Source of the DNA: an uncultured Actinomycetes bacterium
GTDB taxonomy: Bacteria; Actinomycetota; Thermoleophilia; UBA2241
NCBI GenBank assembly: GCA_963755025.1
Contig: CAVWIH010000034.1
Coordinates: 128,001-192,000, forward strand
Reading direction: 5' to 3'
DNA: 64,000 nucleotides
The position numbers were made by a program, and so were the translations under genes. The notes beneath the pieces are model-generated. The model did no database searches. It was given only the letters and a program-made list of their open reading frames with translations, and had not been told where the DNA came from. This document shows, piece by piece, positions 2,859 through 8,993 of the stretch. Within the stretch, counting starts at the first letter, position 1. Every line of letters starts with the position of its first letter.

Positions 2859-4319
2859 CTATTCGTGACGCGCGCGACGGATGTCGCTGGCGCTCGCCTG
2901 GCAGATGGCGGCCAGGCCGTCGATCTGGTCGTCGCTCAGGCAGGGCTCTTTGGCGGCGTGCGCGGCCAGCAGGCGCTCGACCGTGTCGCAGGCCACGTCG
3001 TTCTCGGTGCGGCCTTCTTCGAGCCACTTGTCGTACGACAGGCGGTTCGACACGCCCGGCTGCAGGTGTTCGCCCGCGCGCACGCGGCGCGCCGTGTCTT
3101 TCTCGCCGAGAAAGCCGCCGCCCGGCCCGACCCGGGCGATCGACTCGGCGGCCAAGGTGGCGTCGGAGACCTCGACGTCGCCGTGAAGGCGGCGCACCAT
3201 GGCGGCGATCTCGTCGTCGACGACCGACTGCGGCAGGTACATGGTGTTGTGCGAATCGATCAGGCCCCAGCCCGTGACGATGTCGGGGTTGGCGCTGCAC
3301 ACGCCGGCCACCTTGAGGGCCTTCTCGTAGCCGGTCTGCAGGCCGGCGTGCTTGCTGTCGGTCGACAGTCCCGGGCTCAGCGTGGGCACGCCCACGTAGT
3401 GGCCGACCTCGGTGGCCATGGCCGCCATGAGGGCGCTCTCGACGCAGCCCAGCGAGAAGGTCGTGCGCAGCATGTCGAGCACGCCGGAGCCGAAGCAGAA
3501 GATGAGCCGCGCCCCGGGCGCGGCGACCTGCAGGGCGGTGGCGACGCCTAGGAACTCGGCGAGCCCCTGCACGACCGAGCCCGCCAGCGTGACCGGCGAG
3601 GTCGCCCCGGCGATCGTCATGGAGTAGACCTCGATCGGTATGCCCAGGGCGGCCAGCGCGACGTGGACGTCGAGCACCGGCCCCTCGACCTGGAGCGGCG
3701 AGGCGGCCGTGCAGACTGTCGAGAAGCGCGGCCGCTCGCGGAACGCCTCGAGGCTGCCCGAGAGCACTTCGCAGATGCGCACGACGGCGTCGACCTCGTT
3801 GGGGCAGTCGACGAAGGTCACGTGCTGCGAGGTCTCGGTGAGCATGGTGAAGTACTCGATGAGCTCGCGCCGGTCGAGCGCGACGTCGGTGGCGCTGACC
3901 TGGGTCCACATGAGGTCGAGCTGCGGCAGTTCGTCCATGAGCGCGGTGCACTCGCGCAGGTCCTGCAGCGTGCTGGGGCGGCGCGCGCCCGTGCGAAAGT
4001 CGAGCGTCTTGGCGACGCAGCCGCTCGGCGCAAAGCGGAACCGCTGGTCGGCGCCGAGCAGGGCGTCGTCGGCCGGCGTGGCGCCGGCCATGGTGAAGGA
4101 GCGCGGGCACTGGGAGATGGCCCACTCGACGAGCTCGCGGGGCAGGCGGACGATGCCGGTAGCCTCGTCGACCTGGGCGCCGCGGGCGGCCAGCAGGGGC
4201 AGCGTGCGCGAGCCGGCCAAGCGTATGCCGACCGTCGCCAGCAGGTCGATGGCCTGGTCTGCGATGCGGCTCTTCTCGTGCTCTGAGAGCCACGCGGTCC
4301 GTGCCTTCACAAGCCTCAC
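2859..4319 (-). CDS. Non-pyrrolysine MttB-superfamily methyltransferase
   Basis: AGATSPVTLAGS and GLSTDSKHAGLQTGYEK motifs, GPGGGFL C-terminal motif; Ser at the Pyl-equivalent position. Confidence 0.85.
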   Translation of the reverse strand: MRLVKARTAWLSEHEKSRIADQAIDLLATVGIRLAGSRTLPLLAARGAQVDEATGIVRLPRELVEWAISQCPRSFTMAGATPADDALLGADQRFRFAPSGCVAKTLDFRTGARRPSTLQDLRECTALMDELPQLDLMWTQVSATDVALDRRELIEYFTMLTETSQHVTFVDCPNEVDAVVRICEVLSGSLEAFRERPRFSTVCTAASPLQVEGPVLDVHVALAALGIPIEVYSMTIAGATSPVTLAGSVVQGLAEFLGVATALQVAAPGARLIFCFGSGVLDMLRTTFSLGCVESALMAAMATEVGHYVGVPTLSPGLSTDSKHAGLQTGYEKALKVAGVCSANPDIVTGWGLIDSHNTMYLPQSVVDDEIAAMVRRLHGDVEVSDATLAAESIARVGPGGGFLGEKDTARRVRAGEHLQPGVSNRLSYDKWLEEGRTENDVACDTVERLLAAHAAKEPCLSDDQIDGLAAICQASASDIRRARHE

Positions 4320-4563
4320 ACACCTTCCCCTGGGCCGCTGTCCGCGCGCTGGTGCGCGGGCTTGGCGGCGGTCCCCGGCAGCCTGCCGCGAGACCGTTCG
4401 CAGGGCACGATGTCACCAGCCCCGAGCGGTGTCAAGCCGAAGCGTTTCGTTCCAACGGAAAACGGCAGAACTACTTGTCTTTACAACGCACATGCTTGAA
4501 CTGTCGCCGCGAAAGCGCAAAGATTGCGTATTCGCTGTGAGTATCGGCAGGGAGGAGCATCGC

Positions 4564-5100
4564 ATGATCAGAGCGGGGCAGGCCCCCTTCGGCACGGTCG
4601 CCATGGACGAGCTCGACCGCGGCATCGTGCAGCTGCTGCGCCCTAACGCGCGGCGCTCGTACGCCAGCGTCGCGCGCGCCCTCGGCGTCTCCGAGCCCAC
4701 GGTGCGCAACCGCGTCGACCGCCTCATCGCCAAGGGCGCCGTCTTTCAGCGGGCCAGCGTCAACCCCGCGGCCATCGGTCTACCCGTCGACGCCATGGTC
4801 GGCATCCGCGTGAACCGCGGCTACTCAAAGGGGGTTGGGGCGCGCCTCGCCGCCATGGAGAACGTAGCCTACGTGGGCTACACCACCGGCTCGTTCGACA
4901 TCCTGATCGAGGCGCACCTGCCCGACAACGAGGGCCTCTACAAGTTCTTGAACGAAGACCTCGAAGAGATCGAGGGCGTGGCCTACACCGAGACCTGGCA
5001 CATCCTGCGCACCGACAAGACCAACATCGAGTGGGAGGGCGAGATGGTCGGGCACGCTCCCCTCGAGGTCGTCGACGACCTCGAGGGCGCCGACGCTTGA
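4564..5100 (+). CDS. Lrp/AsnC family transcriptional regulator
   Basis: MDELDRGIVQLL...ARRSYASVARALGVSEPTVRNRV HTH, TTGSFDIL ligand-domain motif; GGAGGAG RBS. Confidence 0.9.
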   Translation: MIRAGQAPFGTVAMDELDRGIVQLLRPNARRSYASVARALGVSEPTVRNRVDRLIAKGAVFQRASVNPAAIGLPVDAMVGIRVNRGYSKGVGARLAAMENVAYVGYTTGSFDILIEAHLPDNEGLYKFLNEDLEEIEGVAYTETWHILRTDKTNIEWEGEMVGHAPLEVVDDLEGADA

Positions 5101-5132
5101 CAAGCCCCGGCGGGCAGTGTCTGATGAGCTAC

Positions 5133-5150
5133 TAATTGACCGGTCGATTA
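5133..5150. promoter_or_regulatory. Near-perfect 18-bp palindrome (candidate repressor operator) upstream of mtbB
   Basis: TAATTGACCGGTCGATTA, AT-rich in a GC-rich background; TTGACA at 5097-5102 upstream. Confidence 0.55.
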
Positions 5151-5186
5151 GCACGACCGCCATGGCGTGATCTGGGGAGGGCAAGC

Positions 5187-6596
5187 GTGACGACAGAAGA
5201 CCGGGTGCCGACCCGAATGGCCGACGGCACCTTCGTGCGCCTGACGCGCAGCGAGATCAAGGCCGATCTCGTGGCCGGGTCAGAGGCGGCGGCCAAACGC
5301 GCCAAGGTGGCGCCGCTGACCGACGACGAGATCGACCACCTGCTCGACATCTACGCCTCGCCGGCGCGCTTTACCGGGGTCGACGTGGGCGACGAGATCG
5401 TCCTTTCCTGCGACGGCACCGGCATGAAGACCCACGCCACGCGCATCCAGGACCTGCAGACCTACGAGCAGTGGATGGGCGCCGACCTGCTCGAGCTGTG
5501 CGTGGGCGACTACTCGCTCAAGGTCGTGCGCACCATCCTCGCCTACGAGGCGCAGTACATGCACGACGCCCAGCTCTGCACGGTGGCGCCGCTGCAGTAC
5601 GGCGTCATGCCCAACCTGGGCCTCTATTCCAAGCCCGACGGCCCCTGCGACAACTGGAACGAGCTCCTGCCGCTGGGCCGCATCGACGAAGCGCGGGCGT
5701 CTGAAGAAGAGGCCGTCGAGATGGCCGTGGTCGACATGGTGCGCCTGGCCGACACGCAGTACGAGGCCGGCGCCGACGCCATCGACTGGGACACGACGGG
5801 CGCCTCGGGCGACCCCGAGTTCCTGGCCGCGCTGCGCGCCACCGCCATCATCCGCAAGAAGTACCCCGACTTCGGCGTGCAGCTGGGCATGGCCGGCGAG
5901 TTCGTGCTGGGCATGCACGGCCGGCTCGAGTACGAGGGCGTGCGCCTCGCCGGCCTGTGGCCTAAAGACCAGCTGCTGCTCGCCCAGCAGGCCGGCGCCA
6001 CCATGTTCGGGCCGGTCGTCAACGTGAACACCGGCAAGAGTTGCGCCTGGAACATCGCCCGGGCGATCGCCCTGGTCAAGCCGTGCATGGACGTAGCCAC
6101 CATCCCCGTCCACATGAACGCCGGCATGGGCGTGGGCGCCGTGCCCATGTTCGTGCACCCGCCGGCCGACGCCGTGTGCCGGGCGGCCAAGTCGTGCGTC
6201 GACATCCTGCACCTCGACGGCTTATAGGTTGGTTCCGGCGACCCGCATGGCATGCACAGTGCGCATGCGCAGGCGGCGGGCATGGGCGGAATGCGAGCAG
6301 CCGGAGACCTGGTTGCTCGCCTGCAGATGACCCGCGGTATGCGTCTGGCGCAAGCAAAAGACTATGTGGCCGGCAAGCTCGGCGTGACGCCGTTCGACCT
6401 GTCCGACCCCGTCGTCATGACCGACGTGCGCAACGACTTCGGCTTTGGCCGCATCCACAGCTACGCCATCAGTCAGCCGGCGCAGGCCAACCAGATCGAG
6501 GCCAAGGTGAACATCGCGCGCGTGCTCGACATACCCATCAACTGTGTGGAGCGCTTCAGGGAACGTACGACGCCGGTCGCCGGCGGCGTGCGCTGA
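5187..6596 (+). CDS. mtbB: Dimethylamine:corrinoid methyltransferase, pyrrolysine-containing (in-frame TAG 6225-6227, codon 347 of 469)
   Basis: ORFs 5136-6227 and 6252-6596 share a frame; readthrough gives LDGL-O-VGSGDPHGM...GMGGMRAAGDLVARLQ, matching Methanosarcina MtbB DGI-O-IGVGDPLGM...RAAGDLVARMQ; GTG start with GGGGAGG RBS. Confidence 0.92.
6235..6373 (+). promoter_or_regulatory. Long imperfect stem-loop immediately 3' of the mtbB amber codon (PYLIS-like candidate)
   Basis: Nested helices 6235-39/6369-73, 6244-50/6362-68, 6261-68/6337-44, 6276-83/6327-35, 6293-6302/6311-20; local excess of A/T-ending codons. Confidence 0.6.
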
Positions 6597-6621
6597 CGCG
6601 GCGACCGAGGGAGGGCGACTG

Positions 6622-8097
6622 ATGATCCGCAACCCGCGCGCCGGCGCGCGCAAGAGCGGCGGCTTTCGGCTCGAGGTGTTCACCGACGACGAGCTGCGCG
6701 AGATCCACCTGGCGACGCTCGAGGTGCTGTCGCGCACCGGCGTCTTCGTCGAAGACGACGAGGCGCTCGAGCTGTTCGCCCAGGCGGGCGCCGACATCGA
6801 CCGCGAGCGCCGCGTCGTGCGCCTGCCGGCGCACCTGGTCGAAGACGCCGTCGACGCGGCGCCCTCCACGGTCGTGCTCTGCGGGCGCGACCCGGCGAAC
6901 GACGTGGTCTTAGAAGACGGCCGCGTCGGCTTCACCAACTTCGGCGAGGGCATCCAGGTCGTCGATCCCTACACGGGCGAGCTGCGCGAGTCGCACAAGG
7001 CCGACGTGGCCGACTGCACGCGCCTGATCGACGCCCTGCCCGAGATCGACGTCGTCGAGCGCCCCCTCGGGGCGCACGACGTGCCGCCCGACACGGCGGC
7101 CCTGCACAACGCCGAAGCGATCTTCTCGAACACCACCAAGCACGCCACCATCGGCCCGCTCTCGGGCTTCTGCGCGGTGAAGATGATCGACATGGCGGCC
7201 GCCATCGCCGGCGGCCGAGACCGCTTGCGCAGGCGGCCCATCCTCTCGTTCCTCACCTGCCCGGTGAGCCCCCTCAAGCTCGTCGCCGACGCCTGTCGCA
7301 TCATCATCGAGGGGGCTCGTGCCGGGGTGCCGGTCAACGTGCTCTCCATGGCCATGGCCGGCGGCTCGTCGCCGGTGAACCTGGCCGGCACGCTGGTCAC
7401 CCACAACGCCGAGGTGCTCGCCGGCATCACGCTGGCACAACTCACCGTGCGCGGCGCGCCCGTCATTTACGGCTCGTCGACGACCGCCATGGACCTGCGC
7501 TACGCGAGCGCCTCGGTGGGCAGCCCGGAGTGCGGCATGATCGGCGCCGGGGTGGCCTGCCTGGCGCGCTTCTACTTGCTGCCCAGCTGGGTCGCCGGTG
7601 CGTAGGGCGACTCCAAGGTGGCCGACGCCCAATCCGGTCACGAGAAGACACTCACCAGCCTGCTACCGGCGTTGGCAGGGGCCAACCTGATCTATGGGCT
7701 GGGGATGTTGGAATCGGGCGTCACCATCGACTACGCGCAGCTCGTCATGGACGCCGAGTTCGCGCGCATGGTCAAGTTCTGCGTGCCGGGCATCGCCGTG
7801 AACGACGAGACCCTGTCGGTCGACGTCATCGCCGAGATCGGCCCGTTCAGCGACTTTCTCTCACACGACGACACCTACCGCGGCATGCGCGGCCAGTCGC
7901 GCTCGAAGTTGATCGACCGGCGGGTCCGCGAGGAGTGGGTCGCCGCCGGCTCGACGACGCTCTACGAACGCTCGCGCGCCGAAGCCTGCCGCCTGCTCGA
8001 GAGCCACGTGCCGCAGCCGTTGCCGCCCGAGGTGGCCGCCGAGCTTGCCGCCATCATCGCGGCGGCAGAGCTGGAGCTCGGCGTGGGGCCGGCCTGA
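6622..8097 (+). CDS. mttB: Trimethylamine:corrinoid methyltransferase, pyrrolysine-containing (in-frame TAG 7603-7605, codon 328 of 491)
   Basis: ORFs ending 7605 and 7618-8097 share a frame; [45 protein letters not shown] matches the Pyl site of Methanosarcina MttB; GGAGGG RBS. Confidence 0.93.
7617..7725 (+). promoter_or_regulatory. Long imperfect stem-loop just 3' of the mttB amber codon (PYLIS-like candidate)
   Basis: Nested helices GACGCCC 7624-30/GGGCGTC 7716-22, TCCGG/TTGGA, CCAGCCTG 7655-62/TGGGCTGG 7695-7702, GTTGGC-AGGG-GCCAAC 7671-86. Confidence 0.55.
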
Positions 8098-8177
8098 GAG
8101 AGCCGCGCGCGGTAAGGCAGAGGGCCACCGGGAACAGCGCCACCGACAGGGCGCGCACGACGCAGGCGAGGGTGTCG

Positions 8178-8993
8178 TCAGGCGACCCGATCGAACGAAG
8201 GGTCGCTCGCCGGAAAGCCGAGCGTGGTGCGCACCGTGCCGTCGCCTTCGACGATCAGCGCGCTGTAGCCGCGCAGTCCCGCCACCCGAGCCAGGGCCTT
8301 GCCGCCCGACGCCAGCAGAGCGGTGGCCAGGGCGTCGACGAAGGCCAGGTCGGGGCCTACCACGGTCGCCGCGAGCAGTTCCTGGGCGGCTTCGCCGGAG
8401 TGGGGGTCGAACACGTGCAGGCCGCGCTCGTAGTTGCCCGAGGTGGCCACCGCGCGGTCGTGGCCGCCCAGCGTGACCACGGTGAGCAGACGGTCGGCGG
8501 CCAGGGGGTGGCGTATGCCCACGCGCCACGGCTGGCCCTCTTCGGGCTCGCCGAACACGGCCACGTCGCCGCCGGCGTTGATCATGGCGCCCGCGGCGCC
8601 CGAGGCGCGCACCTCGGCCAAGGCGAGCTCGGCGGCCCAGCCCTTGACCAGGCCCGTGGGGTCGACGCCGCCCGGCAGCGCCCAGGGGTCGAACCAGCCG
8701 CCCGACGCCTCGCGCGCCCGGCGGCAGAGCTCGAGCACCTGGGCGACCTCGGGCGGCGCCTCGTCGAGCGATATCTCGCCGCGCCGCAGGCGGCTCACGG
8801 GGCTGTCTGGCTGCCAGGTGCTGAACACCTGGTCGACGTGGTGCAGCACGGCGACCGCGCGCTGCGCGGCGGCGGCCGTCGCAGAGGTCGCCGACGCCTC
8901 GCCGCCGGTCTCAGTCGCCGCCGCCGTTGTCGCCGCCGCTTCCCGGATCACCAACGACACCACCGTGCCCATTACCGCTTCCGAGAGCTGCAT
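8178..8993 (-). CDS. apbE: FAD:protein FMN transferase (ApbE family)
   Basis: VMGT, FSTWQPDSPVSRL, DPTGLVKGWA, INAGGDV, VATSGNYERG, DALATA motifs. Confidence 0.88.
   Translation of the reverse strand: MQLSEAVMGTVVSLVIREAAATTAAATETGGEASATSATAAAAQRAVAVLHHVDQVFSTWQPDSPVSRLRRGEISLDEAPPEVAQVLELCRRAREASGGWFDPWALPGGVDPTGLVKGWAAELALAEVRASGAAGAMINAGGDVAVFGEPEEGQPWRVGIRHPLAADRLLTVVTLGGHDRAVATSGNYERGLHVFDPHSGEAAQELLAATVVGPDLAFVDALATALLASGGKALARVAGLRGYSALIVEGDGTVRTTLGFPASDPSFDRVA

Follow-up and report, generated by a model that had tools for sequence, protein, structure and literature searches.

A selected RNA hairpin very probably follows the in-frame UAG of pyrrolysine-type mttB, the gene for trimethylamine methyltransferase. 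We describe it in a 64,000-nt stretch of DNA (the window; contig CAVWIH010000034.1 of assembly GCA_963755025.1, positions 128,001 to 192,000) from an uncultured Actinomycetes bacterium of the Thermoleophilia. The gene lies at 6622–8097 on the plus strand and has 491 codons with one TAG read through (Pfam MTTB, E 1e-86). This TAG is codon 328 (7603–7605, plus strand), at the aligned pyrrolysine (Pyl) position. The gene at 6622–8097 is identified as a pyrrolysine-type MttB gene by its MTTB family membership, by the TAG in the place of the conserved active-site residue and by the Pyl machinery that its genome encodes, and the TAG was present at the aligned Pyl position in 80/80 related mttB loci from species genomes, nearly all of them Thermoleophilia or Actinomycetota assemblies. 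The original prediction, made from the letters of the window, had proposed a structure-based recoding signal: a nested stem-loop of about 110 nt that begins 7–12 nt after the UAG, near the site where mRNA enters the ribosome. Its core is real and its form was over-read. Comparative conservation and pairing bear out a structure under selection 3′ of the UAG, which is not an exceptional 110-nt barrier at the ribosome entrance.

Frozen rare codons and the apical hairpin of mttB

The best-supported element is an apical hairpin of 23 nt at 7667–7689 (plus strand), composed of a 6-bp stem (7671–7676 with 7681–7686) around the loop AGGN (7677–7680) and an extension of 3 pairs across a 1-nt bulge (7667–7669 with 7687–7689); alone, it folds at −12.2 kcal/mol. 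For comparison, 80 related loci, the window gene and its four TAG paralogs were reduced to 61 representatives at <92% nucleotide identity, and synonymous change was expressed as the ratio of observed to expected change for each residue type and pair of sequences, in 15-codon windows (477 windows). The lowest synonymous change of the whole mttB was found at codons ~340–365, where the 14 lowest of the 477 windows all have their start (codons 340–355), with a minimum of 0.48 at codons 349–363. Codon by codon, Ala350 is GCG in 60/61 representatives, Leu351 is TTG in 60/61, and Ala352 (GCA), Ala354 (GCC) and Gly361 (GGG) are the same in 61/61, whereas Gly353 in the loop is free (GGG 42, GGT 9, GGC 6, GGA 4). 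The frozen bases are those of the apical stem and the freely varying one is the fourth loop position. Elsewhere in these mttB genes, TTG accounts for 3.0% of Leu, GCA for 2.8% of Ala and GGG for 15.9% of Gly codons. With the native codons the hairpin has a pair probability of 0.999; synonymous re-coding lowers this to 0.011 on average (150 re-codings), and 0/150 form it. By this comparison the apical hairpin goes beyond chance, and it is the conservation of its synonymous sites, not its energy, that appears to be the evidence that counts. Another synonymous dip of mttB, at codons 214–230, involves common codons only and was set aside.

The hairpin lies within a zone of A/T-ending codons (codons 321–370; 7582–7731, plus strand), the mean share of which over the 61 representatives is 0.14–0.17 against 0.035–0.06 at codons 41–310. 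In the window gene, 7/40 codons after the TAG and 1/40 before it end in A or T (5.9% gene-wide), so that the counts of the original prediction proved exact, and at least 7 such codons are reached only by 40-codon windows with their start at codons 319–337. The genome carries 22 full-length paralogs of the MttB family, of which 5 align a TAG with that of the window gene; after this position, 6–9/40 codons end in A or T in 5/5 TAG paralogs against 0–3/40 in 16/17 non-Pyl paralogs. The dip in third-position GC (GC3) is therefore specific to Pyl-type genes. The non-Pyl MttB homolog of the window itself (2859–4319, minus strand, without TAG; Pfam MTTB 2.3e-69), which had been suggested as a control, has neither the GC3 dip nor excess folding at the equivalent region (z −0.87 and −0.92). 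It would seem that third codon positions are picked for pairing rather than for the GC bias of the genome, and thus a local run of A/T-ending and rare codons would arise. An excess of A/T-ending codons after the TAG was also observed in 10/11 Pyl genes of the genome.

Less constant helices appear to nest around this core, all on the plus strand. The middle helix CCAGCCTG/TGGGCTGG (7655–7662 with 7695–7702) encloses the apical hairpin, and the outer helix GACGCCC/GGGCGTC (7624–7630 with 7716–7722) starts 18 nt after the UAG. The segments TCCGG/TTGGA (7633–7637 with 7708–7712) and GGT/ACC (7617–7619 with 7723–7725) are complementary here and not conserved. All helices that had been listed are indeed complementary in their places, with one correction, namely that the CGG strand lies at 7667–7669 and not at 7666–7668. 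The proportion of paired cells, first in the 61-sequence (Thermoleophilia) set and then in a wide set described below, was 98.2% and 79.7% for the apical helix, 92.7% and 78.3% for the outer, 79.2% and 75.3% for the middle, 68.4% and 67.3% for TCCGG/TTGGA and 68.4% and 60.8% for GGT/ACC. Taking all helix cells of the 61 sequences together, 84.8% are paired against 29–48% when the partners are slid, and 7 pairs have changed on both sides against 3.0 ± 1.0 in shuffles (0/500); the middle helix has 4 pairs changed on both sides. Pairing is kept at 27–44% of changed bases in windows starting at codons 326–351 and at 12–34% elsewhere, as judged from the window's own folds. RNAalifold retains the apical hairpin and the core of the outer helix only, dropping GGT/ACC and TCCGG/TTGGA.

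A register-free test was also applied to 57 representatives at <88% identity, in which the duplex of a sequence's own 5′ and 3′ segments (cis) is set against duplexes with segments of other sequences (trans). For the apical helix, z was −10.0 with all partners and −6.1 with GC-matched partners (0/2000 GC-matched permutations reached the observed value); the middle helix gave −5.96 and −4.81 (0/2000) and the outer −5.12 and −3.01 (2/2000), against +1.2 to −2.6 in three controls with all partners and +1.8 to −1.9 in five GC-matched controls. Clade structure inflates these z values, a flaw that the controls share. On this comparative evidence, the middle and outer helices are moderately supported as exceeding chance, GGT/ACC and TCCGG/TTGGA read as chance complementarity, and a nested architecture is probably maintained in which the apex is fixed and the flanks vary in register.

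The wide set was made up of 80 metagenome loci, drawn by the pattern of the TAG-adjacent peptide motif and blind to hairpin codons, together with five Desulfobacterota genome loci and the window, giving 85 distinct segments. In Desulfobacterota, a close Pyl-type mttB was found in 2/251 genomes sampled from the phylum. All 6 pairs of the apical stem are present in 52/85 segments and at least 5 in 69/85, while the loop reads AGGN in 76/85; the GC content of the 57 representatives of this set ranges over 44–68%. The stem is closed by the third bases of Ala350 and Asn355, two synonymous sites, and this closing pair is G-C in 45 segments, A-U in 21, G-U in 2, A-C in 1 and other letters in 16. With a phi of 0.90 it ranks first among the 386 third-position column pairs that are comparable, ahead of 0.66 for the next one that has good counts, and within the low and middle thirds of GC3 it is still A-U in 20, G-C in 19, G-U in 1 and A-C in 0. 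A second co-change, from U-A to C-G, is seen in one paralog of this genome (contig C21, 4400–6200; stem CTG...AGC) and in 4/85 wide-set segments. Covariance scans over all 8646 column pairs were swamped by purine/pyrimidine third positions and GC bias, and therefore were not used as the main test; when they were restricted to double changes, the closing pair came 2nd, behind a pair that we read as GC bias and not as a helix.

Genes of the family that do not use Pyl spell the same peptide differently. In non-Pyl paralogs with the equivalent L-A-G-A motif, Leu is CTG, CTC or CTT and Ala is GCC or GCG. One Desulfobacterota genome holds both a 46%-identical TAG paralog that retains TTG GCA and a 46%-identical homolog with His in place of Pyl, in which the ALAGAN motif is kept with the codons CTT GCC GGG GCG; this homolog forms only 4 stem pairs, those imposed by the peptide motif, and it makes a single natural contrast rather than a series. 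As far as these comparisons reach, the hairpin recurs in Pyl-type mttB at 44–68% GC and is restricted to Pyl-type genes when set against non-Pyl paralogs.

A second hairpin in mtbB

Directly upstream of mttB lies mtbB, the gene for dimethylamine methyltransferase, with an in-frame TAG at 6225–6227 (plus strand; Pfam Dimeth_Pyl, E 3e-164). It has a hairpin of its own at 6267–6344 (plus strand), 78 nt long with the loop AGAY at 6305–6308, which folds at −51.6 kcal/mol with a z of −5.72 (0/200 shuffles); the most stable window of the analysed span is found at +10 to +40 codons. Several synonymous pairs covary among 30 representatives; pair 75–90, formed by two third positions, reads C-G 12, A-U 8, G-C 4 and U-G 2, and pair 55–108 reads G-C 21 and A-U 9. 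Several G-U pairs of this hairpin are invariant and hence point to sense RNA. The hairpin is kept in 6/6 mtbB paralogs of its own genome, and two Desulfobacterota genomes supply 5 distinct segments following the TAG, at 46–55% identity, that keep it as well. The synonymous-rate profile of mtbB after the TAG showed no suppression (1.0–1.3), the hairpin being visible in covariation instead. The codon that precedes the mtbB TAG is TTG in 27/30 representatives.

The two hairpins share several features. The apex lies at +75 to +78 nt from the U of UAG in mttB and at +81 to +84 nt in mtbB; both loops begin with A-G, and in each the A belongs to a rare codon that is fixed (GCA in 61/61 mttB, GGA in 30/30 mtbB), and the fourth loop base is free in both. 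The share of A/T-ending codons in mtbB is 0.26–0.28 at +10 to +40 codons after the TAG against 0.025–0.05 otherwise, and in both genes this post-TAG spike is lineage-wide. Thus the mtbB hairpin, which falls in the region of Rfam RF02509 (PYLIS_2), is like that of mttB in apex distance, A-G loop start, free fourth base and excess of A/T-ending codons. It is unlike it in its much longer and stronger stem, it has no sequence similarity to it, as had been noted from the window, and its synonymous sites vary and covary, whereas those of the mttB hairpin are frozen. The claim of one architecture in two unrelated genes stands in that mtbB has its own covarying hairpin, but for mttB the proposed start at 7–12 nt after the UAG does not. 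Since only two families are involved, the parallel in apex and loop is suggestive.

Decoding, mRNA fate and other explanations

The explanation that we prefer, tentatively, is that the selected stem-loop is a cis element tied to the in-frame UAG, one that would favour pyrrolysine insertion. The mRNA of Pyl-type mttB would carry within its coding sequence a stem-loop whose core (7667–7689, loop AGGN) lies ~66 nt 3′ of the UAG, with the less constant middle and outer helices nested around it and reaching back to ~18 nt. This element would shift the balance from termination to pyrrolysine insertion, and its loop and stem would probably be recognised by a component of the translation apparatus rather than block the ribosome. 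TAG is the stop of 328/946 long coding-like open reading frames (ORFs) of the genome (~35%; a proxy count that includes roughly 11 Pyl sites), so unrestricted suppression would be costly and a way of telling two kinds of UAG apart would be useful. What speaks for a recognised signal that is coupled to the UAG is the frozen A-G of the loop, together with the restriction to TAG genes and the similar spacing in both families. That the hairpin acts on UAG decoding at all is a possibility we hold with slightly more reserve; its role in recoding makes a good hypothesis. Several results weigh against such an element, and they are considered below together with the alternatives on which they bear.

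The first of these concern energy and position. The minimum free energy of the 120-nt region 7606–7725 is −52.2 kcal/mol (z −2.09; 7/200 dinucleotide shuffles equally stable), and the corresponding fold holds all the helices originally listed except GGT/ACC. Equal or greater stability, down to −66.8 kcal/mol, is found in 39/91 windows of 120 nt of the same mttB, and equal stability at the matched position in 5/17 non-Pyl paralogs, so that stability does not single this region out. Synonymous re-codings with the usual codons of the family average −47.9 ± 4.0 kcal/mol and 14.7% of 300 are as stable as the native sequence; when native codons are permuted among positions of the same residue, z is −1.96. 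The mean over 31 homologs is −27 to −33 kcal/mol for windows of 90 nt that follow the TAG, weaker than most of the gene, of which they form the GC trough (0.61). Relative to composition, the five TAG paralogs gave z values of −2.69, −3.6, −1.12, −2.56 and −2.89 (mean −2.57) and the 17 non-Pyl paralogs a mean of −0.70 with one at −3.25; the five are close kin and cannot be taken as five independent cases. The thermodynamic stability of 7606–7725 is ordinary for such a GC-rich gene and marginally beyond chance. Of the two observations that had been named as speaking against the original prediction, folds of equal stability were thus encountered, whereas a similar GC3 dip was not. As for position, the apical hairpin starts 62–66 nt 3′ of the UAG (the 6-bp stem at 66 nt), too far to touch a ribosome decoding the UAG, and the 12 codons immediately after the TAG have a synonymous ratio of 1.0–1.25, without constraint.

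These results bear most directly on the view that, with the UAG in the A site, the whole ~110-nt nested stem-loop physically obstructs the ribosome where mRNA enters it. The nested fold is, in fact, the structure of minimum free energy, its outer and middle segments co-evolve in complementarity and the outer helix is 92.7% paired in Thermoleophilia. Nonetheless, GGT/ACC, the helix nearest to the UAG, is only 61–68% paired, the first conserved helix is the outer one at 18 nt, and ordinary stability (39/91 windows and 14.7% of re-codings as stable) goes along with post-TAG folding that is on average weaker in 31 homologs than in the gene as a whole. Against a simple roadblock stand the distance of 62–66 nt, the lack of constraint on the codons adjoining the UAG and a stability that is ordinary, and we regard a barrier as improbable; a role in the fate of the mRNA after termination would be compatible with these findings.

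The covariation itself has its weak points. The outer-helix columns 24–118 have a phi of 0.47, and the unpaired columns 118–84 reach 0.60; column covariation is therefore not above the background of GC and phylogeny. In the wide set, 16/85 segments have at most 4 of the 6 stem pairs and belong to a small number of divergent groups of sequences. When the closing-pair columns are left out of tree building, each of the two sites changes 6 times on the tree, which leaves 4 well-supported independent contrasts (6 with all branches); the partner follows in 3.3 contrasts on average, with a median sign-test p of 0.25. With phylogeny controlled, the covariation of the closing pair is not significant because the independent switches are too few. 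This paucity of switches suits an explanation without function, by which the conserved LAGAN peptide motif, shared ancestry and chance produce the pattern, and the motif itself encodes 3–4 of the 6 pairs (two GCN codons plus U-A). Such an explanation is very hard to reconcile with codons of ~3% usage fixed in 60–61/61 representatives while neighbouring synonymous sites vary, and with the common codons used by same-motif homologs that have no TAG; we consider it highly improbable.

The strand on which pairing takes place is not settled by the wobbles of the apical stem, where A-C mismatches (21) outnumber G-U pairs (11). As an A-C on one strand is a G-U on the antisense strand, this would fit a palindrome that acts as DNA, for instance as the site of a dimeric regulator, or as an antisense RNA hairpin, rather than as a structure of the sense mRNA; symmetric half-site changes in such a palindrome would also mimic base-pair covariation. 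However, the extension pair 66–86 alternates between G-U (32) and A-U (25), the invariant U-G at 59–94 pairs in sense RNA only, and many G-U pairs are invariant in mtbB. Moreover, the element is preserved across phyla and over 44–68% GC within a coding region. A DNA or antisense role is thus unlikely to account for the hairpin.

A further alternative is that Pyl genes carry a selected RNA element which acts on mRNA fate and not on decoding. It might shield the message 3′ of the UAG from Rho or nucleases upon termination, or it might pace translation for folding or for assembly with the corrinoid protein. The distance of 62–66 nt fits an element that is encountered after passage of the UAG, the zone after the TAG lies in a GC trough and, the hairpin aside, folds less than average, and the element is confined to Pyl-type genes of two families. 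On the other hand, the loop A-G varies in neither family, which points to specific recognition rather than to stability as such, the sequence 3′ of the stem has no U-tract and nothing else that resembles a terminator, and contigs assembled from RNA libraries have no ends there, though such contigs cannot reveal ends. We see this role as conceivable but rather unlikely.

If the cis element does favour pyrrolysine insertion, a narrower proposal would be that the mttB and mtbB hairpins, with their A-G tetraloops and apices 75–84 nt 3′ of the UAG, are read by a trans-acting partner that marks the UAG for pyrrolysine. The obvious point of reference is the bacterial selenocysteine insertion sequence (SECIS), a coding-sequence hairpin with constrained loop bases that closely follows its recoded stop codon, UGA, and is bound by SelB. 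Like SECIS, the mttB hairpin follows a recoded stop within the coding sequence and has loop bases whose identity is constrained; it differs in that the codon is UAG and the apex is ~75 nt away. A SECIS-like arrangement, with a hairpin near the recoded codon and a dedicated factor that binds its apex, was not found here: the apex is distant, and no SelB-like gene was detected among the 25 ORFs around the pyl cluster, to which the search was limited. We know of no dedicated elongation factor for pyrrolysine. The partner model is doubtful. If true, the feature shared by mttB and mtbB would amount to a bacterial equivalent of SECIS, working from afar, in genomes with TAG as the stop of roughly a third of their genes. 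Bacterial SECIS has been described as a hairpin of about 50 nt in the accessible text of PMC8318568. Pairing of tRNA-Pyl with the element was also considered and rejected, the duplex (−50.5) being nothing special beside other mttB windows (mean −51.8).

The question at stake is how bacteria in which TAG is a common stop avoid misreading it once it also means pyrrolysine. Since the mttB hairpin can be mutated by synonymous changes, this question is directly testable. The rare-codon hairpin of Pyl-type mttB and its covarying counterpart in mtbB offer a concrete target and hint that bacteria may label Pyl UAGs within the mRNA itself. The hairpin could also serve as an annotation marker for Pyl genes that gene callers cut at the TAG.

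Known elements, earlier reports and genomic setting

Rfam RF02510 (PYLIS_3, "pyrrolysine insertion sequence mttB") matches 7603–7702 on the plus strand with 72.6 bits against a gathering score of 38, over the full model (1–100), directly 3′ of the in-frame UAG of mttB. Like the region described here, the family covers 100 nt from the mttB UAG. Its consensus structure is not formed, as 3 of its 8 pairs are non-standard here, so the score comes from the sequence; none of the model pairs corresponds to the apical hairpin. RF02510 amounts to an alignment of coding sequences, unlike the hairpin, and one of the hairpin-poor groups of the wide set resembles its consensus. In the region 6000–8200, PYLIS_3 and PYLIS_2 were the only matches, and RF01982, the PYLIS of mtmB1, gave none at E up to 1. 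The mtmB1 PYLIS, which is archaeal and from a different gene family, is likewise a coding-sequence stem-loop that follows a Pyl UAG. As far as the accessible parts of the sources go, it is said to lie within ~100 nt downstream of the UAG, whereas the mttB core starts at 62–66 nt. In Methanosarcina barkeri, this PYLIS raises the yield of full-length product and is not essential, according to the available portions of PMC3639795 and PMC8211752.

Previous work had looked for common structures after the UAG. An analysis of the 100 nt after the UAG, presumably the one from which RF02510 derives, gives mttB as having no sign of a common structure, in the accessible part of PMC3639795. A bacterial cis element was anticipated by Zhang et al. 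2007, who saw no structure common to the methylamine methyltransferase genes of bacteria and urged more searches, as stated in the available text (PMC1976440); a 2021 review holds, in the portion accessible, that no such cis signal is needed (PMC8211752). The accessible parts of PMC8318568, PMC1242214, PMC12626013 and PMC7593587 do not mention an mttB hairpin, and a search of full-text literature, whose scope excludes subscription papers and supplements, returned no description of one. The apical hairpin of mttB is apparently previously undescribed.

The source assembly comprises 3.37 Mb at 70.7% GC and is 84% complete. It encodes pylB, pylC, pylD, tRNA-Pyl (anticodon CUA) and the catalytic (C-terminal) part of PylS on a contig other than that of mttB. 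The order of this cluster (C10, 64000–80000) is pylB, pylC, pylD, tRNA-Pyl, several ORFs, a MarR-family regulator and, on the other strand, the catalytic part of PylS. Regulated expression of pyl genes, the strategy of Acetohalobium, may act here as well. The genome has 6 full mtbB genes with TAG; altogether, at least 5 mttB and 6 mtbB sit on contigs C11, C14, C16, C21, C34 and C36, and the MtmB family has no match in the 84%-complete assembly. Two TAG-type mttB paralogs (C21, 4400–6200, and C14, 392100–393900) have Arg-rich out-of-frame sequence near their 3′ parts, which may reflect frameshift, decay or assembly error.

Peat Actinobacteriota have already been reported, in the accessible part of PMC10805028, to express mttB and mtbB genes that encode Pyl. 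Short contigs from RNA libraries of four wetland studies, 90–99% alike, cover mttB and mtbB (5100–8200) and bridge the mttB TAG (spans 7497–7638 and 7565–7694); they carry no ends, strand or level and hence are silent on mechanism, yet they are consistent with that report. An AsnC/Lrp-type regulator domain at ~4600–5100 (plus strand), the C-terminal third of the ORF 3640–5100, lies just upstream of mtbB, and an ORF of the ApbE family (flavin transferase) at 8178–8993 follows mttB immediately downstream on the minus strand.

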